Shown in pieces: positions 5,201 to 60,962 of a DNA stretch of 64,000 bases. Source of the DNA: an uncultured Actinomycetes bacterium (GTDB lineage Bacteria > Actinomycetota > Acidimicrobiia > Spongiisociales > DATADW01); contig CAVWWM010000025.1 in NCBI GenBank assembly GCA_963758695.1, positions 937 through 64,936 on the forward strand, in the 5' to 3' direction. A program made the translations under genes and the position numbers. A model generated the notes under the pieces. The model saw only the letters and a program-made list of their open reading frames with translations, had not been told where the DNA came from and did no database searches. Each line of letters begins with the position of its first letter. Within the stretch, counting starts at the first letter, position 1.

Positions 5201-8200
5201 CGGCGTCGATGAGCTGGCGGCTAGTGATACACCATTGCGCCCACAACGAGCCGACCGATTGTCACCAGCACGGCATCAACGACTGGAGTGGCATCGCCGG
5301 CGGCTCCTTCGTGGCTCCCGACCACGAGTATCCGTCCTATCTCGAGCTGTCGCTCACGGTGACGGACTCGGGTGGCAAGACCGGGACCGACTCGGTCCGC
5401 CTCGACCCTCGCACCGTCGAGCTCACCTTCGAGAGCGCCCCGGTCGCCGGGCTCGCCCTATCGGTGGGGGCATTTGCCGAACGGACGCCTTTCACCCGAG
5501 AGGTGATCGTCGGGTCGGCCAACTCGGTGACCGCAGTCAACCCACAGGCAAAAGAAGGCGTGGTCTACGGCTTCGACTCCTGGGCCGACGGTGGGGCCGA
5601 GAGCCGATTGATAGTCGCCCCGTCCGTCGACACCACATACCGGGCCGTGTTCCAGGGAGCGCCCCAGGAGCAGGACGGATATCTCACCCTCCCCGGAGCG
5701 GCAGGGACCGACATCACCGCTCCGGCGGGACCCAACTTCGACGCCATCACCGGGACACTCGACGTCAGGGCCGACGTTGCGCTCGACAACTGGTCCACAT
5801 CCAACGCCAAGTTGATCTCCAACCTGCGGACCTCGAGCCTCGGATCGGCCGAGGGCTATGAGCTCATCCTCGACGGGACCACACGCAGGCTCCGCCTCGC
5901 CTGGGTCAATTCGGCGGGCACGCTCCAGACGCGCACCTCGACCCTCGCCGTCCCGGTGGCCGACGGCCAGCGGATCCAGTTGCGCGCCACGCTCGAGGCA
6001 GACAACGGTGCTGGTGGCCACACCGTGACCTTCTTCACCAGGAGCGACGTGGAAAACGAGCTGTTCAATCACTCCGGCTGGACCGAGTTGGGCACCGCGG
6101 TCACGACCTCGGGGCTAACCACCGTCCGGCCCGGCGACAGGAACATGGTGCTCGGTTCCCGGTTCGACCATGTTGCCGGGTTCTGGTCGGGGCGGTACTA
6201 CGCGGCGATGCTTATCAACGGGATTGGCTTCTTCGGCCAGGTGGTGGCAAACCCCGACTTCAGGACGACCGCCCAGCAAGACACGATTCCACCGGACTAT
6301 TCCGGGTGGACCGACGGTGTCGGCAATCCCTGGACGGTGGCTGGCGACGGCTGGAGCTACACGATCGGCGGGCCAAACCGCAGCCCGGTCGCCACGCTCA
6401 CCGCCAATCCCAACCAGGGTGAGGCGCCGCTGACCGTCTCACTCGATGCAACGGCTTCCACCGATCCCGACGGACACTCCCTGCTTTATGACTGGGACCT
6501 CAACGGAGATGGACAGTTCGGCGATGGCGATGCATCTTCGATCCAGACCACCTACCCCGCAGGTACCCACAACCCTACGGTGCGGGTGGACGACGGACAT
6601 GGTGGCACGGACATCGCCTCGGTCACGGTCACCGTCACCGAGGCGCCGCCCGGAGGCGTCGGCCACATCCAACTGCCTGGCCTCGCCGGCACCAGGGTGC
6701 AGACGCCCGACACCGCCGCCCTCGACATCACCGGCGACATCGATCTGCGCGCCGATGTCGCCCTCGACAACTGGGCCACGGCCAACGCCAAGCTGGTGTC
6801 AAAGTTCCCAGGCGCCTACGAGTTGATGCTCAACGGGACCACCCGACAACTCCGGGTCGGGTTCGCCCGGGCAGTCGGTGGTGCACAGACGGTGAACTCG
6901 ACTGTCGCCCTGCCCGTCGCCAACGGCGACCGGCTCCAGGTGCGCGCCACAATCGACATTGACACCGCGGCCAAGAACACCAAGGTCACCTTCTGGTATC
7001 GGACCGATGTCACGGCCAACCTGACCAACTCCACCGGCTGGACCCAGCTTGGAGCGGTCGTCACCAGGAATGGCGCGGTCGCCATCGCCAACGGGGCCAA
7101 CGCCCTTTCGCTGGGCGCGGGACCCGATGGGGCTGGTCCCTGGGCGGGGGACTTCTACCAGGCCGCGGTCCTCTCCGGGATCGGAGGCACCCCAGTCGCC
7201 GCCCTCGACCTGCGGACACCGGCACAGGCGACCGAGCCCGACTTTTCGGCATGGGCGGATGGAGCCGGCCGCGCCTGGGACGTGCTCGGCACAGGCTGGG
7301 TGTACCGCCCGGGGGACCCGAACACGGCGCCCGACGCCATCCTCAGCGCCAACCCCCAGTCGGGGACGGCGCCGCTCAACGTGAGTTTCGATGCCTCCAC
7401 GTCCACCGACGCGGACGACGACCTGCTCACCTTCGCCTGGGACCTCGATGGCGACGGGCAGTTCGATGATGGCAGCGGACCCACCGCCTCCCGCATCTAT
7501 GCCGAGGGCACGCACCACCCCGCGGTGGAGGTGAACGACGGGCGGGGCGGGATCGACACCGCCACCGTCACCATCGTGGTCGACGCACCGACCGGGCCGG
7601 GCGGCGTGAGGTTCAACGGCGGCGCCGGGGCAGTCATCACTACCCCAGACCGAGCCCTGCTCGACATCGCCGGCGACCTCGACATCCGTGCCGACGTGGC
7701 GCTGGACGACTGGAACGACGACGTGGCGCGCCTCGTCTCGAAGGGGACCGCCTATGAGTTGTCTCTCAACGGCACCACCGGCGGGCTGCGTTTCGCTTGG
7801 ACCCGACGCAACGGGTCGCCGTCGGCGGTCACCTCCACGGTCCCGCTACCCGTCGCCGATGGGGGTCGGATCCAGGTGCGGGTCACCTTCGACGGGGTGA
7901 CACCCCCGCCGCGGTTGAGTGCGGTCACCTTCTGGTACCGGACGGCGACCTCCACCGAGCTCTCCTCGAACAGCGGGTGGACCCAGCTCGGTTCGGTGGT
8001 CACCGCCGCCCAGACCGGACAGTTGGCGGTCAACGCCACTGCCCTGGCCCTTGGAGCGACACCCGACGGCACCTCCGGCAACTGGGCGGGTGAGTACCAC
8101 GCCGCCCTGGTCCTCTCCGGTATCGCCGGGACCGCGGTGGCATCACCCGACTTCCGCGACCTCGACCAGTTGACCAGCACCCCGCCCGACTACTCGCGCT

Positions 8201-8265
8201 GGACCGACCCCAACACCAACGCCTGGACCATCACCGGTTCCGGCTGGGGGTACGTGGCGGGATAG
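2290..8265 (+). CDS. secreted multidomain protein (1991 aa): signal peptide + PQQ-dependent (GSDH/sorbosone-type) sugar dehydrogenase beta-propeller + PKD, Ig-like and LamG-like modules
   Basis: Uninterrupted 5976-nt ORF. ATG 2290 is preceded by GGAGCAGGGGA. The N-terminus MSVRRVLVCLVALAIAVGVLPGTAMA looks like a Sec signal. Propeller motifs are GLRNPFRF, GDVGWGTWEEIN and NFGWPCYEG. The PKD signature PL.V.F.....DPDGD...Y.WDLDGDG occurs four times. Confidence 0.9.
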   Translation: MSVRRVLVCLVALAIAVGVLPGTAMASSPTAPNTPAQASTTPAQTSTSPPADPLRLADTDSTSPYAALREAPSIAPLAVTDPEFEEQSAFTGLDLPTVVRFAADGRVFVGEKAGKVKVFDSISDTTATTVIDISAETYGWWDRGMLGMALDPNFPSEPWVYLLTTTYRGRDYADDCPYATDLDAGCMADGRVVRYQVSPTNVASNRQVLLEGNWCQQYPSHSIGTVEFGTAGELYVGAGDGASFNFSDYGQGGGRNTDTPKNPCGDPPVPVGGTQQPATGQGGALRSQDLRTSGDPVTWNGAILRVDPDTGLPLPNNPLVGQGSADDDRIVAYGLRNPFRFTVQPGTGELWIGDVGWGTWEEINRHQNPTQTVRNFGWPCYEGNARQSGYDSLNNNVCETMYGDATAHTPPVLPWNHSSSLAGCGGGSSSVAGLAFYEGGSYPDAYDGALFFSDFSRQCIWVMYPGSGGVPNPATVELFASQVGTVGLEIGPGGDLFAVDHFGGRIIRYRHTVDPENTAPIATASANPTSGSSPLTVNFSGAGSTDPDGDPLTYDWDLDGDGAFDDASGATPQFTYVTPGIHTATLRVSDGRGGTDTAQTAITVTPASGSGDGYLTLPGTAGVDISSAPSPTFDITGDLDLRADVALNDWDSPSGKFVSNLITGTGAQGYELMLNGTTKGLRLAWVDGGGTVRVANSTVALPVTDGQRLQIRGVLDANNGAGGHTVTFFYRTNTTPDLKADSGWTQLGGVVNTGTGTTSVNPGDQEMVLGGRVLHDVEFWSGRYYTASIISGTTGAGQVRADLDFSTTGQLTSTPPDYSEWTDTAGNVWNVNGTGWGYVLGANQPPTAVLGADPLSGPTPLLVNFTASSSTDPDGDPISYAWDLDGDGQLDDSTLAAPEFTYTTPGSYPVTVRVSDGRGGVDTETVIIDATDGNTAPTATIDTPDGSVLWKVGDTISFSGTPSDPNETLGAASMSWRLVIHHCAHNEPTDCHQHGINDWSGIAGGSFVAPDHEYPSYLELSLTVTDSGGKTGTDSVRLDPRTVELTFESAPVAGLALSVGAFAERTPFTREVIVGSANSVTAVNPQAKEGVVYGFDSWADGGAESRLIVAPSVDTTYRAVFQGAPQEQDGYLTLPGAAGTDITAPAGPNFDAITGTLDVRADVALDNWSTSNAKLISNLRTSSLGSAEGYELILDGTTRRLRLAWVNSAGTLQTRTSTLAVPVADGQRIQLRATLEADNGAGGHTVTFFTRSDVENELFNHSGWTELGTAVTTSGLTTVRPGDRNMVLGSRFDHVAGFWSGRYYAAMLINGIGFFGQVVANPDFRTTAQQDTIPPDYSGWTDGVGNPWTVAGDGWSYTIGGPNRSPVATLTANPNQGEAPLTVSLDATASTDPDGHSLLYDWDLNGDGQFGDGDASSIQTTYPAGTHNPTVRVDDGHGGTDIASVTVTVTEAPPGGVGHIQLPGLAGTRVQTPDTAALDITGDIDLRADVALDNWATANAKLVSKFPGAYELMLNGTTRQLRVGFARAVGGAQTVNSTVALPVANGDRLQVRATIDIDTAAKNTKVTFWYRTDVTANLTNSTGWTQLGAVVTRNGAVAIANGANALSLGAGPDGAGPWAGDFYQAAVLSGIGGTPVAALDLRTPAQATEPDFSAWADGAGRAWDVLGTGWVYRPGDPNTAPDAILSANPQSGTAPLNVSFDASTSTDADDDLLTFAWDLDGDGQFDDGSGPTASRIYAEGTHHPAVEVNDGRGGIDTATVTIVVDAPTGPGGVRFNGGAGAVITTPDRALLDIAGDLDIRADVALDDWNDDVARLVSKGTAYELSLNGTTGGLRFAWTRRNGSPSAVTSTVPLPVADGGRIQVRVTFDGVTPPPRLSAVTFWYRTATSTELSSNSGWTQLGSVVTAAQTGQLAVNATALALGATPDGTSGNWAGEYHAALVLSGIAGTAVASPDFRDLDQLTSTPPDYSRWTDPNTNAWTITGSGWGYVAG
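3845..8262 (+). repeat. in-frame module repeats inside the giant CDS: 4 PKD-like units (~3845-4100, ~4815-5085, ~6375-6640, ~7320-7590) alternating with 4 LamG/concanavalin-like units (~4105-4815, ~5665-6375, ~6640-7320, ~7590-8262)
   Basis: Each LamG-like unit repeats the pattern GYLTLPG..G.....P...DITGDLD.RADVAL..W......L.S......YEL.LNGTT..LR..W ... TFFYRT ... GW..LG ... PDYS.WTD...N.W...G.GW.Y. A 28-nt string, CTACGAGTTGATGCTCAACGGGACCACC, is identical at 4296..4323 and 6816..6843. Boundaries are approximate. Confidence 0.8.
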
Positions 8266-8488
8266 CCGAAGACGGAGGACGGAAGCAATTCTCTCTGTCC
8301 CCCCGCAGGGGGGAAGGGACCCGCCGCGGAGCAGCGGGTAGGGGGGAATGGTTCACTCCCAGGGGCGCCGATCGCGCCTGTCGCACCTTTGAACGTGAGC
8401 CTTTCCCCCCTCCCCCGACGCCTCCGGCGTCGGGTACTCCCCCCGCCGGGGGAGAGAGTCGTTGCTGCCGTCTGCCGTCTGCCGTCCT
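8266..8488. repeat. composite palindromic intergenic element, full copy
   Basis: Order: degenerate GACGGNN heptamers 8268..8286, module B (reverse) 8298..8346, centre 8347..8403, module A 8404..8454, (CTGCCGT)x3 8465..8485. It lies between convergent stops at 8265 and 8493. The same modules recur at 8 other loci. Confidence 0.85.
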
Positions 8489-13850: not shown

Positions 13851-13905
13851 CCTCCCCCGGTGAGGGGACGAGGCTGCCGTCTGCCGGTGGGCTGCCGTCT
13901 GCCGT
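13851..13905. repeat. short hairpin (TCCCC-GGTGA-GGGGA) plus CTGCCGK heptamer array
   Basis: CTGCCGT 13874..13880, CTGCCGG 13881..13887, a 4-nt break, then CTGCCGT x2 at 13892..13905. It lies between convergent stops at 13844 and 13911. Confidence 0.8.
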
Positions 13906-13910
13906 CTGGA

Positions 13911-14855: not shown

Positions 14856-14918
14856 CCCTGCAGGATGGCAGAAGCCGATGAGCTGCCATCGCCAGCGCCA
14901 AGCCCTCCTCAACGATCC

Positions 14919-15117
14919 CTCCCCCCGGCGGGGGGAGTACCCGACGCCGTAGGCGTCGGGGGAGGGGGGAATGGTCGACTCCCAAATGTGCGAACGGCGC
15001 GTATCAAGCACCGCTGGGAGGTCGCCAGCCCCCCTACCCGCTGCTCCGCAGCGGGGCCCTTCCCCCCTGCGGGGGAACGGACTGATTTGCTTCCGACTTC
15101 CGTCTTCCGACTTCCAT
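14919..15117. repeat. composite palindromic intergenic element, full copy
   Basis: Module A (reverse) 14919..14970, centre 14971..15028, module B 15029..15076, (CTTCCGN)x4 15090..15117. The array ends 4 nt before the stop at 15122. Confidence 0.85.
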
Positions 15118-15121
15118 CTGG

Positions 15122-18266: not shown

Positions 18267-18289
18267 CGCGGTGCCCCGTCCATCGAGAA

Positions 18290-18400
18290 TCGTTGGGAGT
18301 CAGCCAGCCCCCCTACCCGCTGCTTCGCAGCAGGGCCCTTCCCCCCTACGGGGGGACGGAGTTGAAGTGGCGCTTCCGTCTTCCGTCTTCCGTCTTCCGT
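18290..18400. repeat. partial composite element inside an operon
   Basis: Tail of the centre (CGTTGGGAGTCAGCCAG), module B 18308..18357, (CTTCCGT)x4 18373..18400. It occupies the 139-nt gap between the co-directional UXS-like stop (18406) and the ugd start (18266). Confidence 0.85.
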
Positions 18401-18405
18401 CTGGT

Positions 18406-24534: not shown

Positions 24535-25406
24535 AAATGGCGGCCGTGGCGCCGAGACCATGGCGAAGAGATCCGACAACCGACATCACCGAAGAGGCCG
24601 GCTACGACGGTGACCGGTTCTGGGTCTCGCACCAGCCAGAGCGCCCCCGCGTGGGGGTTCTGGTCTGCAGTCCGCTCCACGCCGAGATGCAGCGCAACTA
24701 CCGCCGCGAGGTGTTGCTGAGCCGCCGGTTGGCAAGCGCCGGCGCCGCAGTCGAGCGATTCCACTACCGCGGCATCGGCAACAGTTCCGGGGAGCCCAGT
24801 CGCCTCGCTCTGGACACGATGATCGAAGACGGGATCGCCGCCGTTCGCCACCTCCAGCAACGGGTAGGGGGCGTGCCGTTGGTTGTCCTCGGGACCAGGG
24901 TTGGAGGATTGGTCGCCGCCGCCGTGGCTGCAAAGGAGAAGGCCGTCGGTCTCGCCCTGTGGCAACCGCTGGTCAAGGGATCTGCCTACATGCGTGAGGC
25001 GGAGCGCTCCGCCATGGCGAGGGCCATCACACGAACCGGTGATGAGCGTCCGCCGCCACTCCGAGACGTGCTCGCCTCCCAGGGATCGGCCGATGTGCTC
25101 GGGGAAAGGGTTTACGCCGCGCTGAGCACCAGCCTGGAGACCGCCCAGCTGAGAACGCTCATCGGCGACGAGCCGCGACCCATCCTGCTGGCGCAGGCCG
25201 GCGGTCCAGACGGACTGCGCGGCGAGCTGGCACGTTTGGCCGACGACCTCTCCGGGAGCGGGTTCACCGTCACCGCCCGTCCCACCGGGGACGCAGAGGT
25301 CTGGTGGGCCAACCCCGGCGGCGACCTCTTCCGCGAGGAGGACCACAAGCCCCTCACCGTCGAGCTTCTTCGTATCACTTCCGAATGGTTGGAGACGTTG
25401 TCGTGA
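24531..25406 (+). CDS. atypical alpha/beta-fold protein, type A copy 2
   Basis: GTGA overlap (alternative ATG 24537). VLVCSPLHAEMQRNYRREVLLSRRLASAGAAVERFHYRGIGNSSG; elbow-like VLGTRVGG; WQPLVKGSAYM. Confidence 0.8.
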   Translation: MKMAAVAPRPWRRDPTTDITEEAGYDGDRFWVSHQPERPRVGVLVCSPLHAEMQRNYRREVLLSRRLASAGAAVERFHYRGIGNSSGEPSRLALDTMIEDGIAAVRHLQQRVGGVPLVVLGTRVGGLVAAAVAAKEKAVGLALWQPLVKGSAYMREAERSAMARAITRTGDERPPPLRDVLASQGSADVLGERVYAALSTSLETAQLRTLIGDEPRPILLAQAGGPDGLRGELARLADDLSGSGFTVTARPTGDAEVWWANPGGDLFREEDHKPLTVELLRITSEWLETLS

Positions 25407-26308
25407 TCGAGCAACCCTTTTTCGTCGATTCCGGCGGGGAGGATCTCTTCGGGGTGGTCGCCCTGCCGGATGAGCCTGCACGGACCGTCGCCACCCTGCT
25501 ACCCGCGGGCGGCTACACGTTCTCGCCGCAACGAAATGGGTGGGGCACCAGGCTCACCCGGAGTCTGGCGGACTCCGGTTTGGCCGCCGTCCGCTTCGAC
25601 TGGCACGGCATCGGGGACAGTTCGGGACGGGCGGGCAACTTCGCCCTCGACCAGCCTTTCGCAGATGACGCCTTGGCGATGGTGGAGATGGCCCGGTCGG
25701 AGGGCTGGGAGCGACAGGTCCTCGTGGGACATTGCTTCGGGGCCCGCACCGCCCTCGCCATCGCACCACAGGTACCAGGTCTCGTCGGAGTCGCCCTCGT
25801 TTCCCCGCCGGTCCGGGACCATGCCCGTGGCGAGGGCGGGGCCAACCGGCTCGCCTACGACCTTGGGACCGCCGGGTACCTGCGCACCGCGGCGGGCAAG
25901 TTGCGCTGGAGCGCGCTGTCCGACCCGGCCGAGCGACGGCGCTACCTGCGGCTTGCCCGCTCTTTTGTGAAGATTCGGTGGGGCGCCGCCAAGCGCCGGG
26001 TTCAACAGTTGCGTGGCAGCGGCGTCGATCCCGTGCCATGGGTCAGCAGGCCGATGCTCAATCAGTTGGCGTGGCTCGCCGACCACGGCATCCCGGTCCT
26101 CTTCGTCTACGGGGACGAGGAAAACGACTTCGCCGAGTTCGGCGAGGCGCGCCAGGGCCGGCTGGGTGAGATCCTCGAGAAGAACGCCGAGAAGATCCGC
26201 ATAGAGGTGGTTCCGGGCTCGGTCCACGGGATGGACCGCACCGACACCCAGGACCGCGTTAAAGAAGTCGTCACTGCCTGGGCTACGGAGATAGGCGATC
26301 TCAGTTGA
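25403..26308 (+). CDS. atypical alpha/beta-fold protein, type B copy 2
   Basis: GTGA overlap. VRFDWHGIGDSSG; elbow LVGHCFGARTAL; PVLFVYGDEEN. Confidence 0.8.
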   Translation: MIEQPFFVDSGGEDLFGVVALPDEPARTVATLLPAGGYTFSPQRNGWGTRLTRSLADSGLAAVRFDWHGIGDSSGRAGNFALDQPFADDALAMVEMARSEGWERQVLVGHCFGARTALAIAPQVPGLVGVALVSPPVRDHARGEGGANRLAYDLGTAGYLRTAAGKLRWSALSDPAERRRYLRLARSFVKIRWGAAKRRVQQLRGSGVDPVPWVSRPMLNQLAWLADHGIPVLFVYGDEENDFAEFGEARQGRLGEILEKNAEKIRIEVVPGSVHGMDRTDTQDRVKEVVTAWATEIGDLS

Positions 26309-26319
26309 ACAATTCGGTA

Positions 26320-26412
26320 CCCCCCTGCCGCTGCTCCGCAGCGGGACCCTTCCCCTTCGAGTGGACGGAGAATCCGGCTGCCGTCTGCCGTCTGCCGTCT
26401 GCCGTCTGCCGT
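26320..26412. repeat. partial composite element: module B (second hairpin degenerate) + (CTGCCGT)x5
   Basis: CCCCCCTGCCGCTGCTCCGCAGCGGGACCCTTCCCC... followed by five perfect CTGCCGT units at 26378..26412. The array abuts the minus-strand stop codon at 26413. Confidence 0.85.
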
Positions 26413-27216
26413 CTAATTCTCCCGACGGAACAGCTCATACGCGGTGACGAACCTCTCGAGGAACTCGCCGCCTGCTTCGTCGAGCAGGCTTTCCCAACGA
26501 GGGTCGCCGCGGTAGCGGGTCACCTGCGAGACGTGGGCAGCGATCGCCGCTTCCTTTTGATCAAGCACCTCGGCCACCGGGACCGCCCAGGTGAACCCGG
26601 CGGTGGGCTCACCGGTCGCAGCGGCGGTGAGTGCCGTCTTCATCCGGCGGGCGAGCTTGCGCACCCCACCACGGCCGGTCACCGGGAGCGGGCCCCATGG
26701 CCAGTGCTGCCACCACCACACCGGGTACTCGACCACGGTGGCGTCGGAACCGACCGATGCGAGTGCTTGCCGAGCGATTCGATAGGCCGCCTCGTGGTCG
26801 GGATGGCCGTCGTCGGCCGCGGTGACGAACACCTCGGCGGGGCGGACCTCTTCGAGAATCGGGACTAGTTGGGCGACGGCAGCCGCTTCGTCCTGTCGCA
26901 GGGCGCCGTCGCGGAACCCGAGAAACCAGGCGCGGTGAGGGCCAACCCCGAGCTGGTCGAGCGATGCGATCTCCTCGCGGCCACGGAGAGCCGTCAACTC
27001 GGCGCGATCGATCAGGTCCCGATTGGCGAAGGCGCCGTCGGTGAGCACCGCCACGGCGACGTCGACGTCCAATCTCCTCTTACGGGCGATAGTCCCCCCG
27101 CACCCCAGAGTGTCGTCATCTGGGTGAGGCGCCACCACCAACGTGGTTCGCCGAAGTTGCTCATCGTCGGCCACCGACCATTCACGGGCAGCGCGCCGCC
27201 AGCGGCGGTCCCGCAC
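26413..27216 (-). CDS. PIG-L/LmbE family deacetylase (second copy)
   Basis: LVVAPHPDDDTLGCGGTI and HPDHEAAY motifs. Confidence 0.8.
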   Translation of the reverse strand: MRDRRWRRAAREWSVADDEQLRRTTLVVAPHPDDDTLGCGGTIARKRRLDVDVAVAVLTDGAFANRDLIDRAELTALRGREEIASLDQLGVGPHRAWFLGFRDGALRQDEAAAVAQLVPILEEVRPAEVFVTAADDGHPDHEAAYRIARQALASVGSDATVVEYPVWWWQHWPWGPLPVTGRGGVRKLARRMKTALTAAATGEPTAGFTWAVPVAEVLDQKEAAIAAHVSQVTRYRGDPRWESLLDEAGGEFLERFVTAYELFRREN

Positions 27217-48552: not shown

Positions 48553-48942
48553 ATGGACTGGAAGCTCGAGGTCGTCCCCGTTCCGGTGGAGGACATCGAT
48601 AGGGCGCTGGCCTTCTACCGGGACCAGTTCGGGTTCGCCGTCGACCTCGACGATCAGGTGTCCGACGAGGTACGGCTGGTGCAGCTCACCCCGCCGGGAT
48701 CGGGTTGCTCCATCCAATTCGACACGACCGAGATGCCTCCAGGTTCGCTGCGCGGGCTACAGATCGTTGTGGACGACATCGCCGCCGCCCGCGCCGACCT
48801 GGTCGAGCGCGGCGTGGAGGTCACCCCAATCCGCCACTTCGATGCCGGCAAGTGGGTCGATGGACCGGGAGGCCGATGGAACTCGTTTGTCTTCCTCAGC
48901 GATCCAGATGGCAACACCTGGGTGCTACAAGAGCGCGGATAG
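48553..48942 (+). CDS. glyoxalase/bleomycin-resistance (VOC) family protein
   Basis: ATG 48553 lies 5 nt after GGAGGAG. VPVEDIDRALAFYRDQFGF... and a C-terminal FLSDPDGNTWVLQE. Confidence 0.8.
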   Translation: MDWKLEVVPVPVEDIDRALAFYRDQFGFAVDLDDQVSDEVRLVQLTPPGSGCSIQFDTTEMPPGSLRGLQIVVDDIAAARADLVERGVEVTPIRHFDAGKWVDGPGGRWNSFVFLSDPDGNTWVLQERG

Positions 48943-49221
48943 ACGGCAGACGGCAGACGGCAGACGGCAGCCAATCCGAATCCGTCCCCCCGGAGGGGAG
49001 GGGGGCCCGCTGCGGAGCAGGGGATAGTGGGGCTGTTGATCTCCCAAACCGTGCCCGACACACGGTTATCGCACCTTTGGGTGCGAACCAGCCCCCCTCC
49101 CCCGACGCCTCCGGCGTCTGGTACTCCCCCCGCCGGGGGGAGCGAGAGTGGTCCTCCGTCCCACCGCCAGGGCGACCACGCTCCTCGTACTAAGTACCAA
49201 GTACTAAGTACCAAGTACTCA
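48943..49221. repeat. composite palindromic intergenic element, full copy, with an extra A/T-rich heptamer array
   Basis: (ACGGCAG)x4 at 48943..48970 starts directly after the stop at 48942. Module B (reverse) 48981..49032, centre, module A 49092..49141, then (GTACYAA)x5 at 49187..49221. Confidence 0.85.
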
Positions 49222-52330: not shown

Positions 52331-52355
52331 CGTCCTCGTCTGCCGTCTGCCGTCA
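52331..52355. repeat. short CCGTCTG-type heptamer remnant
   Basis: CGTCCTCGTCTGCCGTCTGCCGTCA directly downstream of the stop at 52322. A separate small hairpin CAGGGA-ATACTC-TCCCTG lies at 52371..52388. Confidence 0.6.
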
Positions 52356-55709: not shown

Positions 55710-56935
55710 CCGACCTCTCCGCCCGGCGCGCCGACTTCCCGCTTCTGGCGCAGCCGAGCAACGGAAGGCGCCTCGTTTTCCTCGACTCGGCGGCCTCGGC
55801 ACAGAAGCCCGACGTTGTCATCGACGCGATGGACGAGTTCCTCCGGACCAGGTACGCCAACGTGCATCGCGGTGCGTATCGACTGTCACTGGCGGCCACC
55901 GAGGCGTACGAGCATGCTCGAGACTCGGTGGCACAGTTCATCGGTAGCGGCACCCCCCAACAGGTCGTCTTCACCCGTGGGACCACGTCGGCTCTGAACT
56001 CGGTGGCGTTCGGGTGGGGTTTACGGCGTCTTCGTCCAGGTGACCGGGTCCTGCTCACCATGATGGAGCACCACGCCAACATCGTCCCCTGGCACATGGT
56101 CGCCGGGCTCACCGGAGCCGAAGTCATTTGGGCACCGCTCGATGGCGATGGTGAGCTCGATATGGACGCAACTCTCGGTCTCATCGACCAGACGGTGAAG
56201 GTCGTCGGGGTCACCGGGATGTCCAACGTGTTGGGGACGATCCCAGACCTGGGCTCCATTGCCGATAGGGCGCACTCAGTCGGCGCCCGGGTGGTTGTCG
56301 ACGGGGCCCAGCTGATCGCCCACCGCCCGGTTGCCGTCGAGTCGATGGGCGCCGATTTCTTCGCCTTCTCCTCGCACAAGCTCCTGGGCCCCACCGGGAT
56401 CGGCGTTCTCTGGGGCCGCCGGGAGGCGCTCGAGGAGCTAGAGCCCTTCGAGGGTGGTGGCGAGATGATCAGCGACGTGACGCTCGAAGGAGCCACCTGG
56501 GCGCCCATCCCCCACCGATTCGAGGCGGGTACGCCGCCCATCACCGAAGCCATCGGACTGGCAGCGGCGATCGGTTACCTCGAAGAAATCGGTATGGAAG
56601 TGGTCGCCGAGCACGACCGCGCCCTCACCACCTACGCCGTGGAACAGCTGTGTGGCACCCCTGGCGTGGCGATACAGGGCCCGACCGACGCCGACAAACG
56701 GGGAGGGGCGGTGAGCTTCACCATGGGGGACGTGCACCCTCATGACCTGGCAACGATCCTCGACGAGCAGGGTGTGGCGATACGCGCCGGGCACCATTGC
56801 GCCAAGCCCTTGATGCGGGCCCTCGGTGTCCCCGCCACAGCCCGCGCCTCATTCTCGGTCTACAACGGCACCGATGACATCGACGCCCTCATCGCCGGCC
56901 TCGCCACCGCCGCCGATCTTTTCGGCGTCAAGTAA
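55706..56935 (+). CDS. sufS: cysteine desulfurase SufS (group II)
   Basis: ATGA overlap with sufC. HHANIVPW, FSSHKLLGPTGIGVLWG, RAGHHCAKPL. Confidence 0.9.
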   Translation: MTDLSARRADFPLLAQPSNGRRLVFLDSAASAQKPDVVIDAMDEFLRTRYANVHRGAYRLSLAATEAYEHARDSVAQFIGSGTPQQVVFTRGTTSALNSVAFGWGLRRLRPGDRVLLTMMEHHANIVPWHMVAGLTGAEVIWAPLDGDGELDMDATLGLIDQTVKVVGVTGMSNVLGTIPDLGSIADRAHSVGARVVVDGAQLIAHRPVAVESMGADFFAFSSHKLLGPTGIGVLWGRREALEELEPFEGGGEMISDVTLEGATWAPIPHRFEAGTPPITEAIGLAAAIGYLEEIGMEVVAEHDRALTTYAVEQLCGTPGVAIQGPTDADKRGGAVSFTMGDVHPHDLATILDEQGVAIRAGHHCAKPLMRALGVPATARASFSVYNGTDDIDALIAGLATAADLFGVK

Positions 56936-57240
56936 GAGACGGCGGACGGCGACCGAGGACGGAAAGCAGGGTGGTAGGTGTAGTTGGTAAGTGAAACAGC
57001 CGACTACCTACTGCTGCTCCGAAGCGGGTCCCTTTACATCCGTTCCCTCCCCCCGGCGGGGGGAGTACCCGACGCTGGAGGCGTCGGGGGAGGGGGGCTG
57101 GTTCACTCTCCAAGGTTCGAAATCCGCGTGCCGACACCGTTGGGAGATTCGGTAGCCCCCACCCGCTGCTCCGCAGCATGTCCCATCCCCCTGCGGGGGA
57201 CGGACACGTACTTCCGTCTTCCGTCTTCCGTCTTCCGTCT
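56936..57240. repeat. composite palindromic element, longest copy, splitting sufS from sufU
   Basis: Degenerate GACGG heptamers 56936..56963, GGT-rich stretch 56970..56993, partial module B 57004..57035, module A (reverse) 57047..57097, centre, module B 57156..57200, (CTTCCGT)x4 57211..57238. Confidence 0.85.
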
Positions 57241-57315
57241 TGATTCGAGACCCAAAACCCAACACTGCGAGCGAAGCGAGCGATATGTGCGAGCCCCGGT
57301 TACCTTGTTCTCCGC

Positions 57316-57750: not shown

Positions 57751-57833
57751 GACATGACATCTCGTTGATTTCTCTCTGACGCGTCCGCAAGGGACCGCAT
57801 GCGACGGTGGCGGTCCCATACCAGGAGGACAGC

Positions 57834-58706
57834 GTGAAGAGAGTCGCACTGATCGCACTCGCCGCGGTCGCCGTGCTGGCGATACTCGGCGTCGGCATCA
57901 GCCAGGCGCTCCAGGACGACGACGATGGCGCGGCGACAACCGACGCCAATGAGCAGAGCTTTGCCGTTGCCGAGGCGGGCGCCGTGACAGTCACCGTGCA
58001 GAGCGGCCGCATATCGGTCGTTTCGATCCAGCGGGTCGAGGGCTGGACCCCGAAGGTCGTCCGCCAATCCGGTCCCAGAGTCCGCGTGGAGTTCGTCAAC
58101 GGAGCCGCTCGCCGGGTTTTCGTCGCCGAGTTCGCCGGGGGCGAATTGGTCACCCGGGTACGGCGCAGCAATGGCCAGACGACGTCCTCGTCGGTCAGTT
58201 CCTCGTCGGTGAGTTCCTCATCGGTCACGTCATCCTCTGTGACGTCATCGACCGGGGCCACCTCGTCGACCGTGGACGATGACGCCACCTCGACGACGTT
58301 CGATGGCGACAACACTTCGACCACGATCGACGACGATGGCACGTCCACCACCTTCGACGACGACGACACGACGAGCACGACATTCGACGACGATGTCACG
58401 TCAACCACGTTCGACGAAAACACCTCAACCACCTTCGACGACGACACGACGAGCACGACGGTGCGCGAAGAGACCCCACCGACCGACCGCTCGGTGACTT
58501 ATCAGGTTGCGAATGCCGGCAGTGTCACCGTGAGGATCTCCGACTCGCAGCTCGAGTTGCTCGACGTCACCGCCAACGCCGGCTGGGACTTCGAGGTGGA
58601 CGACGCCGGGGGCGACCGTGTGCGGGTGGAGTTCGAGCGGGGAGACGACGACGTCGAGTTCCGTCTCCAGTTCCACGGTTCCGAGCTCCGCCTCGAGATC
58701 GGTTAG
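57834..58706 (+). CDS. secreted/membrane-anchored Ser/Thr/Asp-rich repeat protein with two copies of a small conserved beta-type domain
   Basis: GTG 57834 lies 5 nt after AGGAGGA. Signal/anchor VKRVALIALAAVAVLAILGVG. (SSSVx)x4 at ~58185..58250 and (TSTTFDDDx)x6 at ~58287..58460. The C-terminal domain is shared with 61744..62325. Confidence 0.75.
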   Translation: MKRVALIALAAVAVLAILGVGISQALQDDDDGAATTDANEQSFAVAEAGAVTVTVQSGRISVVSIQRVEGWTPKVVRQSGPRVRVEFVNGAARRVFVAEFAGGELVTRVRRSNGQTTSSSVSSSSVSSSSVTSSSVTSSTGATSSTVDDDATSTTFDGDNTSTTIDDDGTSTTFDDDDTTSTTFDDDVTSTTFDENTSTTFDDDTTSTTVREETPPTDRSVTYQVANAGSVTVRISDSQLELLDVTANAGWDFEVDDAGGDRVRVEFERGDDDVEFRLQFHGSELRLEIG

Positions 58707-58716
58707 CGCCAGGGTT

Positions 58717-58758
58717 CTTCCTTCCGACTTCCGACTTCCGTCTTCCGTCTTCTACCGT
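58717..58758. repeat. CCGWCTT heptamer array (about 6 units)
   Basis: CTTCCTT CCGACTT CCGACTT CCGTCTT CCGTCTT CTACCGT between the stop at 58706 and the start at 58765. Confidence 0.8.
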
Positions 58759-58764
58759 CACCAG

Positions 58765-59709
58765 ATGACCGTTTCCGCACCCCGAGGACCGACTGGGATC
58801 GCCCACAGCACCCCTGTGCGGTGGATGCGGCGCCAGATCAACACCCGACGGGCGCTCCGCCGCAACCCGATCATTGTCCACCAGATGGGGAAGGTGGGGT
58901 CGCAGTCGGTGTTGCGCTCGCTCGCCGCCGAACCGCGCATCTCGGACAGACGCTCTGTGATCCACACCCACTTCCTGACCCGCAACCAATTGGAAAGGGA
59001 GAAGAGGTTGCTGGCGAATTCCCGGACCGCTTACCAGGGGACGCCCCTCCCCGAGATCTGGTGGAATCCCCCGTTCATCTGGGACGGGCAGATCGTCGGC
59101 GCCGCCGTGACGAGACAACTGGACAAGCGGTGGGACGTCATCACGCTGGCGCGCGACCCCGTGGCACGCAATGTCTCGCTCTTCTTCGAGAAGCTCGAGG
59201 TACCGATCGGGTACGACTGGTTCGAGCGCCGGCAACAGCTGTCCGACGACGAGCTCATCGCTGACCTGACCCCGCTCTTCGAGCAGTATGTTCTCCAGCC
59301 GGGAGGTCTGGCCCGACTCGACGTCGACCCCACACGCTGGTTCGACCTGGAGATGGCTCCCGTGTTCGGTATCGACATATTCGCCTCTCCCTTCTCGCCC
59401 GAGCGGGGGTGGCAGATCTACGAGGGCGAGCGGGCGCGGCTCCTGCTGATCCGCACCGCCGACCTCGATCGGGTCGGGCCCCAGGCTCTCGAGGAGTTCC
59501 TCGGCGTGCCCGGGATCAAACTCGCCTCGGGGAACGTCGCCGACCGGAGAGAGCACGCCTCGGTTTACGGCCTATTCCGGGAAAGGCTCCGCTTGTCCCC
59601 CGACCAACTCGAAGCGGTGTACGGGTCCCGCCTGGTGACGCATCTCTTCACGCCGCAGGAGATCGAGGCGATGCGGTCACGCTGGGAGACGGTGTCGGCG
59701 ACTGACTGA
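58765..59709 (+). CDS. sulfotransferase-fold protein (Stf0/capsule-type), function uncertain
   Basis: P-loop-like VHQMGKVGSQSV and 3'-PB-like ITLARDPVARNVS, parallel to the motifs of 21335..22264. Confidence 0.55.
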   Translation: MTVSAPRGPTGIAHSTPVRWMRRQINTRRALRRNPIIVHQMGKVGSQSVLRSLAAEPRISDRRSVIHTHFLTRNQLEREKRLLANSRTAYQGTPLPEIWWNPPFIWDGQIVGAAVTRQLDKRWDVITLARDPVARNVSLFFEKLEVPIGYDWFERRQQLSDDELIADLTPLFEQYVLQPGGLARLDVDPTRWFDLEMAPVFGIDIFASPFSPERGWQIYEGERARLLLIRTADLDRVGPQALEEFLGVPGIKLASGNVADRREHASVYGLFRERLRLSPDQLEAVYGSRLVTHLFTPQEIEAMRSRWETVSATD

Positions 59710-60962
59710 CGAGACGGACCTCGACCCTCGCCCCGCCGAGGGGCGACCTCCCCACGGCGAGGGTCCCGTCGCTTTCCTCGGCAAACCGGCGGGCTATGTC
59801 CAGCCCGAGACCGGTGGATCCAGCTCTGCTCTCCCCTCGCCCGATCACCGCTTGGTCCGGAAACCCGGGACCAGCGTCGTCCACAGACAAGATGGCCGTT
59901 TCGTTCTCGGCCCGAACCTCGAGCTCGAAATCGGTTCCCGGCGGGGTATGGGAGAAGACGTTTCCAACCAAGGCGTCGATTACAGCCGCAACCTCGGATG
60001 CGTCGGCTTCCACCACCACCGGTGATGCCGGCAGGTCGATGTGAAAGTTGCGGCCCTGCTCGTCGGCGAGCACCAGCCAGAAGTCCGATTGGTTGCGCGC
60101 CACCAGACCCAGGTCGACACCTGTAATGGTCCTGCTGCCGCGCCTGGCCGTGCTTATCAGCTCGTCCACGGCCCACTCCAACCGGTCCACCTGAGCGAGC
60201 AACGCAGTGGCGGCCTCAGGGTCGTCGATCGCCTCGGCGCGCGAGCCGCAACGCGGTGAGAGGTGTCCTGAGCCGGTGGGACAGGTCGGCGACCGACTCC
60301 CGCTCGGCGGCCAGCAGCATCTCCACCCTCCCGGCAAGCTGGTTGAGAGCCTCGCCTACCTCGATCACCTCGGGTGGACCCTCGGGGCGGACCCGCGCTT
60401 CCATCTCACCTGCACCAAGCCGCTCGGCGGTGACCGCCAGCTCCCCTACCGGCCGGACGAACGAGCGTCCCAGCCGGTCGGCAACGACCACAGCAAGCAC
60501 GATCATCCCCAACCCGAGGAGCCCGAGGACGAGCCAGGCACGACCGACTCCCTCGGTCAGGTCGGCGGAGCCGAGGCCGACCCGCACTACCGCCGTTCCC
60601 TCACCGGTGACCACGGGGACGACGACCTCGCCGGTGTCCGCCCGGAACGCCAACCCCTGTCGTGCCCGGGCGACGGCGGCAGTGACCGGGACCGGGACCC
60701 CGACGACCTCGTCGTCGGGGAGGACCACCGAGAGCTCGCCTACCCCTTCCGACGAGAGCACCACCTCGTCGATCGCGGCGCGGTCCAGTTCGGGTCCCGC
60801 AGCCACCGCCACGTCGGCTGCCACCGCTTGCGCCCGCCGCTCGGCGGCAACCACGGCCCGATCCTCCGCCTGGCGCTTGTAGAGCAACGCCAACGGCAAG
60901 GTGAAAGCCACAACGACCAACGAGGTCACCGCAAGGCTCACCAACGCCAGCTGCTTGCGCAT
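59648..60962 (-). pseudogene. sensor histidine kinase, frameshift near ~60238
   Basis: ORF 60216..60962 has 2 TM segments, a HAMP-like region and the H-box ADLSHRLRTPLTAL. ORF 59648..60337 continues AEAIDDPEA...NVFSHTP...DDAGPGF...GSTGLGLDIA (N, G1, G2 boxes) in another frame. Confidence 0.8.

Follow-up and report, generated by a model that had tools for sequence, protein, structure and literature searches.

A family of quasi-palindromic intergenic repeats with heptamer tips in soil Acidimicrobiia resembles REP, BIME and REPIN sequences

The REP/BIME sequences of Enterobacteria and the REPINs of Pseudomonas are high-copy extragenic imperfect palindromes, in which two inverted copies lie around a spacer and a long hairpin is predicted in single-stranded DNA or mRNA. 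The BOX elements of Streptococcus pneumoniae have the order boxA-boxB(n)-boxC and vary by the copy number of an internal 45-bp module, and the small non-coding repeats (SNRs) of Deinococcus radiodurans are C/G-rich mosaic repeats in a high-GC genome. Correia elements (NEMIS) of Neisseria are MITEs with 26-bp terminal inverted repeats (TIRs); they duplicate a TA target and contain an IHF site, and their transcribed hairpins can be processed or affect neighbouring genes. In Pseudomonas, REPINs are REP doublets that form hairpins and are mobilised by REP-associated tyrosine transposases, RAYT (PMC3116915, PMC3337134, bioRxiv 10.1101/2021.07.10.451892); they are vertically inherited, long-lived and dependent on a single-copy enzyme that is not necessarily nearby (PMC3116915; bioRxiv 10.1101/2021.07.10.451892). 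Short arrays of one heptanucleotide form another class of non-coding repeat, such as the STRRs of cyanobacteria, TAACTGA in Beggiatoaceae, cyanobacteria and Bacteroidetes (PMC4679880) and GGGNATC in Xanthomonas and Nostoc (PMC4692102).

The 64,000-nt stretch of soil Acidimicrobiia DNA that we analysed (the window) contains quasi-palindromic, self-complementary intergenic elements of about 200 bases, whose tips are 7-base tandem repeats. There are four full elements (8266-8486, 14914-15121, 48941-49219 and 56936-57241), two half elements (18282-18402 and 26297-26414) and, in addition, three loci with a heptamer array alone. This makes about one site per 7 kb; the number expected by chance is about zero. 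A full element begins with (AGACGGN)n and arm rc(B), has a palindromic core of 55 nt in its middle, and continues with arm A and (NCCGTCT)n. In each arm an inner hairpin of 8-9 bp is followed by an outer C6-N3-G6 hairpin and a short tail, and the heptamer TCCGTCT at the tip is multiplied into a small array. A preliminary description of the window had placed A and B in inverted orientation around a centre of about 55 nt with CTCCCAA...TTGGGAG and had taken them for diverged copies of one unit. Both points hold: all four full elements have this layout and carry CTCCCAA...TTGGGAG in the core, the rc(B)-core-A order was seen in 19 copies, and the arms, although consistently distinct, are homologous out through the tail and the heptamer.

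Module A (49 nt, up to 3 mismatches allowed) matched at 8405, 14921(-), 49092 and 57049(-) with one mismatch each, and no matches are expected from 100 shuffles. The 29-nt core of B (up to 3 mismatches) likewise gave four matches, at 8310(-), 15037, 18316 and 26327, with none expected. An nhmmer profile built from the four full copies recovered all four full and both half elements (E values 1e-16 to 1e-59), including more diverged B copies at 48985 and 57156. The dense family of composite palindromes is thus real, and all six module-bearing copies in the window are intergenic. Most rc(B) arms keep GGGTAGGGGGG, which stands between the inner hairpin on its 5' side and the central stem on its 3' side, with GTAG in at least 14 of the 19 copies; arm A has GGTAC instead.

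The element at 56936-57241 (e56) begins at the base right after the sufS stop codon (TAA, 56933-56935). Its left array of degenerate AGACGGC-type heptamers (56936-56967), recognised in the sequence, pairs in the minimum free energy (MFE) fold with the right array, (CTTCCGT)x4.4, which Tandem Repeats Finder (TRF) placed at 57211-57241, 75 nt upstream of the sufU start. An extra left piece (56968-57043) combines a GGTAGGT-type heptamer hairpin (56968-57008) and a degenerate B-type hairpin, B* (57009-57043). The related locus L104 has a homologous arrangement of GGTAGGT hairpin plus B without rc(A) or core, and L102, L103 and L106 do not have the extra piece. Arm A (57044-57099, minus strand, nhmmer profile) differs from the A consensus by one mismatch and has an outer hairpin C6-GCC-G6 and an inner hairpin GACGCC-TCC-(A)GCGTC. 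The palindromic core, CTCTCCAA ... TTGGGAG, occupies 57100-57155. Arm B and its short tail (57156-57210, plus strand, profile and sequence) have an inner hairpin CGCTGC-TCC-GCAGC and an outer hairpin C5-TGC-G5, followed by ACGGA.

The other full elements differ in orientation and ends. The element at 8266-8486 (e8, plus strand; profile, module A match and sequence, with its orthologous site compared) has the order (AGACGGA)2, rc(B) at 8289-8346, core at 8347-8404, A at 8405-8453, tail and (CTGCCGT)3. The convergent spacer that it occupies in full separates the gene of a 1991-aa PKD-repeat protein from a purine-nucleoside phosphorylase (PNP) gene. On the minus strand, the element at 14914-15121 (e14; profile and sequence) runs rc(A), core, B, tail, (CTTCCGW)4, with the stop of a DRL-type oxidoreductase gene on one side (15122, minus strand) and the start of the gene for an ABC ATPase on the other. 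The element at 48941-49219 (e48, plus strand; profile, TRF and sequence) starts with (AGACGGC)4, which overlaps the TAG stop of a glyoxalase-family gene. Next come rc(B), core and A, and a tail region of 44 nt then leads to heptamers of a second family, (GTACTAA/GTACCAA)x4.6.

Both half elements lie on the minus strand and were identified by profile and sequence. The one at 18282-18402 (half core, B, tail, (CTTCCGT)4.3) sits between two co-directional minus-strand genes, and L109 has the same half element. The other, at 26297-26414 (e26), consists of a core remnant, B, tail and (CTGCCGT)5.9; the array overlaps the stop codon of a PIG-L gene (CTA = TAG), and the hydrolase ORF upstream now terminates within the core remnant. 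At the orthologous site L092 carries a full element, with the unique linker GAGAATCCG in common.

Nine loci had been said to share these building blocks, which is true of the four full and two half elements. The remaining three, at 13874, 52337 and 58721, have neither A, B nor core; taken earlier for partial module copies at 13851, 52331 and 58717, they are only tandem heptamers (CTKCCGW)n, the first with a small C5/G4 hairpin at 13851-13873. TRF identified all three. The first (13851-13908), with its hairpin and an interrupted (CTGCCGT) array, lies in a convergent spacer. The second, (CTGCCGT)x2.6 at 52337-52354, begins 14 nt past a stop codon, and relatives carry (CTTCCGT)x3-4 at this site. 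The third, (CTTCCGA/CTTCCGT)x4.6 at 58721-58752, is also 14 nt past a stop codon, and what relatives have there ranges from nothing through a plain hairpin to GGTAGGT/ACTTACC arrays or to both types of array.

The preliminary description had the hairpin modules right and missed the heptamer arrays, which form the outer ends of both arms and close the folded structure. TRF found ten period-7 arrays in the window, all ten intergenic, and CCGTCTKCCGTCT (up to 1 mismatch) occurred 25 times against 0.55 expected. The array unit is the conserved arm boundary motif TCCGTC(T). Heptamer families found on hairpins are AGACGGN, GGTAGGT and AGTACTN, with GTCGCCN in a cousin. Array length and unit variant differ at the two ends of one element (the left array of e8 is AGACGGA-type and the right GCCGTCT-type, and e56 is the reverse), and unit count and variant differ between close relatives. 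In the half and lone arrays of the window, CTKCCGT was on the plus strand in 5/5 cases.

Like STRR, TAACTGA and GGGNATC repeats, these arrays contain two to six units of one specific heptamer, are scattered through non-coding DNA, are over-represented and vary by 7-nt-step indels between close strains. Like GGGNATC, they are rarer between divergent genes and enriched within about 50 bp of stop codons (PMC4692102), whereas in the Guaymas Beggiatoaceae genome the majority of TAACTGA repeats are found immediately before start codons and not after stops (PMC4679880). The Acidimicrobiia arrays differ from the known heptamer repeats in being attached to hairpin modules, in forming inverted pairs that could make a closing stem, and in a unit that is the arm boundary motif and has no G-tracts of three or more. 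This physical link of hairpins and heptamers could help to explain heptanucleotide over-representation in some bacteria.

The idea that the whole element could fold into one long hairpin or cruciform is upheld by predicted folds, in which the full copies outdo shuffled sequence by a wide margin, with z about -5 for RNA and for DNA. Identity of a whole element to its own reverse complement is 0.62-0.72. The inner-B loops are GNA, closed by C-G, in 18 of 21 copies, and all loops have 3 nt. C-GNA-G is the motif of extraordinarily stable DNA mini-hairpins (PMC13037366, PMC3201870), so these loops point to hairpins which would act at the DNA rather than the RNA level.

The A stems were also said to be conserved under differing loops, as if structure were selected. 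The stems are indeed conserved. However, the four A hairpins have a constant loop length and differ by one loop substitution and one stem substitution, and the apparent TGGAG loop at 57075 is a TCC loop with one mismatched closing pair. Covariation over 19 copies gave double changes in 5 of 47 pairs against 3.5 ± 1.3 in shuffles. RNAalifold returned ambiguous long-range pairing of C-runs and G-runs with a covariation term of about zero, and under a local-hairpin model 90% of the structure was paired with covariation barely above shuffles. For these reasons we make no claim of selection on structure from covariation; the stems are conserved mainly as sequence, and the hint of structural selection is weak. 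Stem mismatches (G-T versus A-C) identified no preferred strand.

A wider search with the 18-mer CCCCCCTCCCCCGACGCC, which is of low complexity, returned 101 loci, about 80 of them chance matches in unrelated phyla; blastn on the retrieved loci left 17 true loci. The preliminary description had proposed that relatives be scanned; 15 further full-length copies were found in five other Acidimicrobiia MAGs, at unrelated loci and about 75-89% identity, so that at least five other MAGs have the family. Carriers include CAWACT01, CAWGRK01, CAVTEU01, CAWGYV01, DATADW01 and the assemblies behind ERZ25039536 and ERZ25039591. At least six genomes contain the same A/core/B unit, at over 20 loci whose flanks are unrelated. 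Half elements occur here too, as do tandem chains A-rc(B)-core (L061, L064, L081). Copies form a star-like cloud, with identity of 0.79 within genomes and 0.74 between them. JGI metagenome contigs gave one match, a cousin with different heptamers. The family does appear to be an undescribed one: Rfam gave no match in the whole window at the gathering threshold, and we found no description of it in the literature on REP, RAYT or MITE elements of Acidimicrobiia or Actinobacteria.

Exact-sequence look-ups of the window's SufU and SufS proteins gave no match, and a homologue search led to relatives with 99% SufU identity. Close relatives have different module mixes in the same intergenic spacers (85-96% identical flanks). 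The reshuffling includes arm loss, inversion, tandem chaining, replacement, and gain or loss of heptamers. Where the window carries rc(B)-core-A with arrays (e8), L034, with flanks 92% identical, carries an inverted element that lacks arrays, and L115 (PNP 96% identical in amino acids) has only a GGTAGGT/ACTTACC heptamer hairpin. The L034 element is 0.80 identical to e8 in the same orientation and 0.67 when flipped, in neither case more than random pairs are (mean 0.81). As to inversion in situ in L034, only the outer-loop triplets hint at positional descent. At the e14 site arm A is absent from L109 and L110. Six of seven relatives, window included, have different module mixes in the sufS-sufU spacer (L102 and L106 share one), and module content there differs between relatives that are 93-96% identical. 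In more distant Acidimicrobiia sufS and sufU abut or have only a HIT gene between them, so the spacer is, judged from these gene orders, a derived state.

In the closest relative, element identity is 0.84 against 0.89-0.93 at third codon positions, and it is still 0.84 where third positions have fallen to 0.55-0.65. Individual copies thus change faster than synonymous sites in the short term, and the family consensus survives saturated synonymous divergence. This fits constraint at the level of the family, for example by a conserved recognition factor, with unstable individual copies; fast locus turnover with a lasting consensus is what a family defined by a conserved trans-acting factor would be expected to show.

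These properties are best explained by lineage-specific non-coding, non-autonomous quasi-palindromic repeats of the REPIN/BIME kind in 3'-proximal intergenic spacers of a soil Acidimicrobiia clade, an explanation that we consider probable though far from secure. Like REP/BIME and REPIN sequences, the elements are many extragenic imperfect palindromes built as an inverted doublet around a spacer, with a long predicted hairpin. They also occur as singlets (the half elements) and in tandem clusters with alternating orientation and linkers, have no enzyme gene adjoining the copies, persist vertically with a star-like cloud of variants, and are biased to gene 3' ends and convergent spacers. They differ in several respects. 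A REP is one unit of about 20-35 nt, whereas the arms here are about 50-75 nt with two hairpins and a tail and consistently come as two distinct paralogues, A and B; the spacer between them is palindromic and conserved in its own right; and the termini are expandable heptamer arrays, which to our knowledge are not a feature of REP/BIME. The GTAG tetranucleotide, at the 5' foot of the hairpin in REP, lies here outside that position, in arm B. The host belongs to an actinobacterial class for which we found no report of REP/RAYT systems. The elements are an undescribed relative of the REP/BIME/REPIN palindromes and not a new kind of biology. They extend the phenomenon to an uncultured soil Acidimicrobiia clade, with an unusually informative anatomy in which the two paralogous arms are fixed, the core is palindromic, the GNA triloops are of DNA type and the heptamer termini can expand.

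Other intergenic families are less close. Like BOX and SNR repeats, the elements are modular mosaics with variable module number, a stable predicted fold and no known mobilising enzyme; this likeness is one of architecture. BOX does not vary by terminal 7-mers, and the A/B/core arrangement is specific to the Acidimicrobiia family. With Correia elements they share a non-coding length of 100-300 bp, inverted termini and many intergenic copies. Unlike Correia elements, they showed no target-site duplication at the copies inspected, end in tandem heptamers of variable length and vary mainly by module-level mosaicism.

For a family of the REPIN/BIME kind, a trans-acting enzyme that recognises folded single-stranded DNA hairpins would have spread the unit; the obvious model for this putative enzyme is a RAYT or IS200-type HUH enzyme. 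Template switching at quasi-palindromes, recombination between modules and replication slippage in the terminal heptamers would then produce the observed variants. As the preliminary description stated, there is no transposase in the window: Pfam scans of its roughly 60 ORFs found no transposase, integrase or HUH domain. Since close relatives offered neither a clean filled-versus-empty site nor a target-site duplication, recent transposition is something that we infer. An element transcribed at a gene end would probably act as a 3' hairpin, as an exonuclease barrier or attenuator, and this role would be a side-effect or secondary benefit and not the reason for spread.

The constant hairpin occupancy of 3' spacers would also fit host function. 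Under that explanation, which we rate as possible but clearly less probable than a REPIN/BIME-like family, the elements would be bidirectional terminators independent of a U-tract, 3'-end stabilisers or RNase III sites, and the repeat would be a favoured sequence solution. E. coli REP/BIMEs, after all, attenuate transcription and stabilise upstream mRNA. None of the nine window sites is more than 30 nt away from a stop codon, and of the spacers of at least 60 nt, 4/7 convergent, 5/13 tandem and 0/8 divergent ones are occupied. Every relative keeps some long hairpin per slot, be it an A/B element, a GGTAGGT hairpin or a plain hairpin, and palindromic symmetry would give transcripts from either side the same structure. 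Between 48 and 59 kb, canonical stem-plus-T-run terminator sites number 4 against 4.1 expected from shuffles and none is at an element; the elements there end in heptamers and lack the GC-rich hairpin followed by a T-run that characterises Rho-independent terminators. Termination at e56 would, however, be harmful, because this element lies within the suf operon between genes that abut in distant relatives. The variation of module content at the same site between 93-96% identical relatives also speaks against host hairpins, as do the weak covariation, with sequence and not pairing conserved, and the 3-nt GNA loops, which favour DNA over RNA hairpins. A need for any hairpin would leave the strict conservation of a 49-nt arm across genomes unexplained. 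Host function and a REPIN/BIME-like origin are not exclusive.

More speculatively, modules and arrays may be two products of one dedicated DNA-processing system, and alternatively or additionally the elements may be genome-wide bidirectional terminators free of a U-tract; we consider this doubtful. The enzyme of such a system would recognise C-GNA-G hairpins in single-stranded DNA and copy TCCGTC repeatedly by templated slippage or fold-back synthesis, which would explain why AGACGGN, GGTAGGT, AGTACTN and GTCGCCN occur as inverted pairs on hairpins right after stops. If true, it would for the first time offer a mechanistic approach to the bacterial heptamer repeats (STRR, TAACTGA, GGGNATC), which have long gone unexplained.

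Of the two comparisons made in the preliminary description, that with REP/BIME stands and that with MITEs is disfavoured. A classical MITE would be a deletion derivative of a cut-and-paste transposon, with arms and arrays as transposase-binding TIRs and a full-length IS elsewhere in the genome. In some eukaryotic elements and some of the Tn7 or Mu type, transposases bind to short subterminal repeats, and the terminal inverted structure, small size, high copy number, intergenic location and different occupancy of the same site in close relatives are all MITE-like. Nevertheless, the presence/absence polymorphism and target-site duplication for which the preliminary description had suggested a search were not found: the copies and junctions inspected had no fixed-length target-site duplication, sequences beyond the arrays being unrelated, and no clean empty site occurred among six orthologous spacers in relatives with 79-96% flank identity. 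All six spacers hold family-related sequence in close relatives, with differences at module level, and the empty state was seen in distant relatives only, apart from one heptamer array missing in L107. Array length and unit variant are unequal at the two ends of an element, half elements and tandem chains are common, and no parent IS or transposase with the same termini was present in the window or noticed in the loci, nor was there a match to plasmids or phages (blastn) or to viral contigs. We therefore regard a MITE as improbable.

About as improbable is an origin without any mobility, in which post-stop hairpins would grow in situ by heptamer slippage and fold-back template switching, and gene conversion would keep them similar. 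The orthologous sites at 58706 do form a graded series: L107 has no array, L106 a plain 45-nt hairpin, and in L102 and L103 a hairpin of the L106 type is interrupted by a palindrome that (GGTAGGT)n and (ACTTACC)n arrays form in inverted arrangement; L105 adds a CTTCCGA array to that structure, and the window has a CTTCCGN array beside a native TACCGTC. Unit number and unit variant change between close relatives, and in e8 the left half of the core looks as if converted into the reverse complement of the right half. Some array variation therefore clearly arises in situ and needs no mobility. This accounts for the arrays but not for a 49-nt arm A, an arm B and a 55-nt core in six genomes, at over 20 loci that are unrelated in their flanks; gene conversion would be insufficient there, because a homologous copy must pre-exist at each locus.

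Structured small-RNA genes or cis-regulatory RNAs are very improbable. Strong predicted folds and intergenic position would suit them, but permissive Rfam thresholds gave only generic long-hairpin models of the miRNA-precursor type, at e8 and e56 and far below gathering scores. The elements have no promoter-like or terminator-like signals, take both orientations relative to neighbouring genes (e14 and e56 are opposite to each other with respect to transcription, and half elements lie either way round), and combine weak covariation with module-level indels between close relatives. The assembly artefact that had been raised, from collapsed or chimeric low-complexity sequence, can be dismissed: C6/G6 homopolymers and microsatellites are error-prone and several related assemblies have the fragmented gene calls typical of long-read indels, but the elements stand at orthologous positions, between intact and collinear flanking genes, in independent long-read and short-read assemblies of different samples and assembler signatures (ENA ERZ25039xxx long contigs, ERZ27274788 k133, SMAG k141 contigs and a JGI contig).

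CRISPR (no spacer arrays), integron attC sites (no integrase found), riboswitches or attenuators (both orientations occur) and G-quadruplexes (G-runs engaged in hairpins) were rejected on architecture. Their hypervariability between genomes that are 93-96% identical means that the elements could be used as strain markers. In these MAGs they are hotspots of assembly and gene-calling error as well, because ORFs run into or end inside them.

The window, with a G+C content of about 67%, carries four full elements, e8 (8266-8486), e14 (14914-15121), e48 (48941-49219) and e56 (56936-57241), and the layout that the preliminary description gave for e56 and the other three, two distinct hairpin arms (A and B) inverted around a palindromic core of about 55 nt, matches the sequence there. 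The 49-nt module-A consensus had four window matches with one mismatch each and the 29-nt B core also had four, against none expected for either. In an nhmmer search, a profile made from the four full elements recovered all of them plus two half elements, e18 and e26 (E values from 1e-16 to 1e-59). Nine loci had been said to share the modules; six of them do, whereas those at 13874, 52337 and 58721 are heptamer arrays only. The modules had been described correctly but the tandem heptamers left out, and the supposed TGGAG loop at 57075 is really a TCC loop in which one closing pair is mismatched.

The unit was derived from an alignment of 19 full-length copies, of which the window contributed four and other genomes 15. 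Read as rc(B)-core-A (rc, reverse complement), it begins with (AGACGGN)n, the linker AGCAAnTC and TCCGT, followed by the outer hairpin of rc(B), C6-GNA-G6, and its inner part, made up of AAGGGnCC, the inner hairpin CGCTGC-GGA-GCAGCG and GG-TAG-G6. The core contains CTCCCAAcggtgc-loop-gcaccTTTGGGAG. Arm A has an inner part of C6TC5, the inner hairpin GACGCC-TCC-GGCGTC and GGGTACT, and an outer hairpin C6-GCC-G6; the right end is AGGGAATCGTTGCT and (TCCGTCT)n. Since the homology between the arms reaches up to and including tail and heptamer, the whole element is a quasi-palindrome, 0.62-0.72 identical to its own reverse complement, and the A/B difference is identical across all copies and all genomes. 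In tandem chains (L061, L064 and L081; L numbers denote loci or contigs from other genomes or metagenomes) the A tail passes directly into the TCCGTC-C6 of the following rc(B); the heptamer is thus the boundary motif of the arms in expanded form.

TRF found ten period-7 arrays in the window, every one intergenic. One family, CTKCCGW (AGACGGN on the opposite strand), accounts for nine of the ten, and CCGTCTKCCGTCT with at most one mismatch has 25 window matches against 0.55 expected. Two more heptamer families, AGTACTN and GGTAGGT/ACCTACC, lie at element edges. The AGTACTN family occurs at window 49187-49219, as (GTACTAA/GTACCAA)n, whose AGTACT core is palindromic, outside the A/B element, and at about 3985-4020 of L090 in minus orientation, immediately outside an AGACGGC array; heptamer families are therefore stackable at element edges. 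Arrays of GGTAGGT paired with ACCTACC/ACTTACC (window 56968-57008, L102:11395-11470, L103:11395-11465 and L115:3330-3400, also L104 and L105) make stand-alone hairpins directly 3' of stop codons. In the half elements and lone arrays at 13874, 18373, 26378, 52337 and 58721 the plus strand has the pyrimidine-rich CTKCCGT in five of five; it is the C-rich strand, as cumulative GC skew declines along the window, and this preference (n = 5) may be a replication-strand bias. Cyanobacteria, Beggiatoaceae and Xanthomonas are known to have heptamer arrays scattered through their non-coding DNA (PMC4679880, PMC4692102). New in the present family are the joining of such arrays, as inverted pairs, to the ends of hairpin modules and a heptamer unit equal to the arm boundary motif. 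The constant asymmetry between arms A and B, the palindromic and conserved spacer and the host clade are likewise new. Literature searches found no published description of the element family.

Genes were mapped by GC3 and checked against Pfam; on this map all nine window sites lie within 30 nt of a stop codon, and two arrays each overlap a TAG stop. None of eight divergent spacers is occupied, compared with four of seven convergent and five of 13 co-directional spacers of at least 60 nt; by a crude call, loci outside the window are about eight convergent, seven tandem and three low-confidence divergent. Orientation relative to transcription is not kept, e14 being opposite to e56 and half elements lying both ways. 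The window alpha/beta-hydrolase ORF at 25385-26308 terminates within an element-core remnant (26250-26308), and at L092:4790-4864 a PIG-L ORF appears to continue for about 20 codons inside the element before it stops at the TAG of GGGTAGGGGGG. No transposase, integrase or HUH domain was found among about 60 ORFs scanned, and none of the elements coincides with a promoter-like signal or a T-run terminator signal.

Candidate loci outside the window came from an 18-mer of low specificity, from which true homologues were sorted by local blastn and nhmmer. Full-length homologues are present in five MAGs, MFD00962.bin.2.16 (eight loci), MFD05747.bin.2.155, MFD09267.bin.2.26, Acidimicrobiia SMAG_U6761 and Acidimicrobiia MFD02360.bin.2.54; homologues of the window SufU have the source name 'Acidimicrobiia bacterium'. 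No Rfam family matches the elements, and neither do IMG/VR viral contigs, plasmids or phages. JGI metagenome contigs gave a single match, a cousin element at L108:2600-2790 (contig Ga0256865_1007717), in which a (GTCGCCN)n array adjoins a C6-TAA-G6-AGTACCCGAC module and G-rich runs; its architecture is like that of the window family but heptamer and inner hairpin differ.

Orthologous spacers were compared in relatives with flanks 79-96% identical. At the e8 site, L034 (flanks 92% identical in nucleotides, third-codon identity 0.87-0.88) has the element in opposite orientation and without heptamers, and the two copies are 0.80 identical, against a mean of 0.81 for random pairs. L115 (PNP 96% identical in amino acids) lacks A, B and core there and has instead a hairpin of inverted GGTAGGT/ACTTACC arrays. 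The sufS-sufU spacer shows six module mixes among seven genomes. With H for an AGACGGN-type array, G7 for a GGTAGGT-type heptamer hairpin and B* for a degenerate extra B-type hairpin, the window reads H, G7 hairpin, B*, rc(A), core, B, H. The order in L103 is half core, rc(A), core, B, H, and in L102 and L106, which have one mix in common, it is half core, B, H. L104 has G7 hairpin, B and a degenerate H, L107 has rc(A), part of the core and H, and L105 is degenerate. What distinguishes L102 from L103 is a 107-nt block of rc(A)+core lying between 16-nt direct repeats of half core. In more distant Acidimicrobiia (SufU 67-69% identical) sufS and sufU abut or have a HIT gene alone between them, so that the element-bearing spacer is the derived state. 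At the e14 site L109 and L110 are without arm A. The half or full elements occupying the e18 and e26 sites are clearly orthologous. L092 matches e26 in an unusual outer loop and in the unique linker GAGAATCCG, although their flanks are only 79% identical. The 58706 site forms a graded series, from no array (L107) through a plain 45-nt hairpin (L106), the same hairpin with an inserted palindromic piece of inverted heptamer arrays (L102 and L103) and this form plus a CTTCCGA array (L105), to the window, which has a CTTCCGN array only, next to a native TACCGTC.

Identity of orthologous elements was set against third-codon-position identity of flanking genes: 0.84 against 0.89-0.93 in L103, 0.79-0.835 against 0.60-0.79 in L109, and 0.84 against 0.55-0.65 in L092. 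The copies form a star-like cloud (mean identity 0.79 within and 0.74 between genomes), those of the window being no closer among themselves than to foreign ones. Single copies thus outpace neutral sites in the short term, yet the family consensus is stable in the long term.

Whole elements have a folding z of about -5 as RNA or DNA, and in the predicted fold of e56 a multi-hairpin structure is closed by pairing between the two heptamer arrays. A local-hairpin model is 90.4% paired, falling to about 55% when slid. Double changes affect 5 of 47 pairs (shuffles 3.5 +/- 1.3), the covariation score is 0.058 against 0.048 in shuffles and RNAalifold gives a covariation term of about 0, so that support for selection on pairing as such is weak. 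A few compensatory changes are convincing: the inner B stem has C:G in place of T:A in L061b, L079 and L090, and L104 has CCTCC/GGAGG in place of CCCCC/GGGGG. Loops are 3 nt long throughout. In 18 of 21 copies the inner-B loop is GGA, GCA or GAA, with a C-G closing pair and the variable base central; these loops have the d(C-GNA-G) mini-hairpin motif, which has extraordinary stability in DNA (PMC13037366, PMC3201870). Together with the lack of orientation preference, such loops favour a DNA-level role (single-strand or cruciform) over an RNA-level one.

Some insertion process is required to place one defined unit at more than 20 loci whose flanks are unrelated. We rank first, at slightly better than even chances, a REPIN-like, trans-mobilised, quasi-palindromic repeat family, because unit design, location, persistence and family constraint fit REPIN/BIME (PMC3116915; bioRxiv 10.1101/2021.07.10.451892): a doublet around a spacer, singlets, alternating clusters, 3'-proximal location, no enzyme gene nearby, long persistence and family-level constraint. 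Variants would arise by quasi-palindrome template switching, inter-module recombination and heptamer slippage. Membership of REP/RAYT is not claimed, the system-defining enzyme having been sought among the roughly 60 window ORFs only. That the elements serve the host as 3' hairpins (terminator, stabiliser or processing site) would agree with the REPIN-like reading, and both may hold, but such a function is rather unlikely as the explanation, since e56 lies inside an operon junction where the genes abut in relatives, and sequence, not pairing, is conserved. A classical MITE is improbable, as neither a target-site duplication nor a clean empty site was found among the close relatives compared. 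Growth in situ alone, which accounts for the arrays but leaves the shared arms unexplained, is quite improbable; an sRNA gene is very unlikely, and an artefact hardly credible.

Some other features of the window were recorded. No element or heptamer array occurs between 27 and 48 kb. Genes for dTDP-sugar epimerase, UDP-glucose dehydrogenase, several GT4 glycosyltransferases, Polysacc_synt_2 and sulfotransferase belong to a large gene cluster for polysaccharide or cell-envelope sugars at 16400-45000. An 855-nt segment (1339-2192), which codes for an alpha/beta hydrolase fragment (ORF 1585-2091, minus strand) and contains no mobile-element gene, is missing from the 92%-identical L034 (L034:7384-7387). 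The 1991-aa ORF at 2290-8265, with internal repeats of roughly 940-1560 nt and PKD/Big_9 domains in its L115 orthologue, probably encodes a large secreted or cell-surface repeat protein. ORF 57807-58706, whose 299-aa product has no Pfam match, contains at 58275-58460 about six in-frame tandem copies of a 27-nt repeat that is rich in the codons GAC and ACC (Asp/Thr). On the minus strand at 59565-60962 a sensor kinase appears as two ORFs (59565-60176 and 60216-60962), while in L102 and L103 it is one 437-aa HAMP-HisKA-HATPase gene; the split is either a frameshift/pseudogene or a sequencing error. Synteny with L102 and L103 (95% identical) stops at about 51120, where the window has acyl-CoA dehydrogenase genes and L103:1-3860 has LacI, a TacA-like antitoxin and GNAT acetyltransferase pair, and DUF1801.
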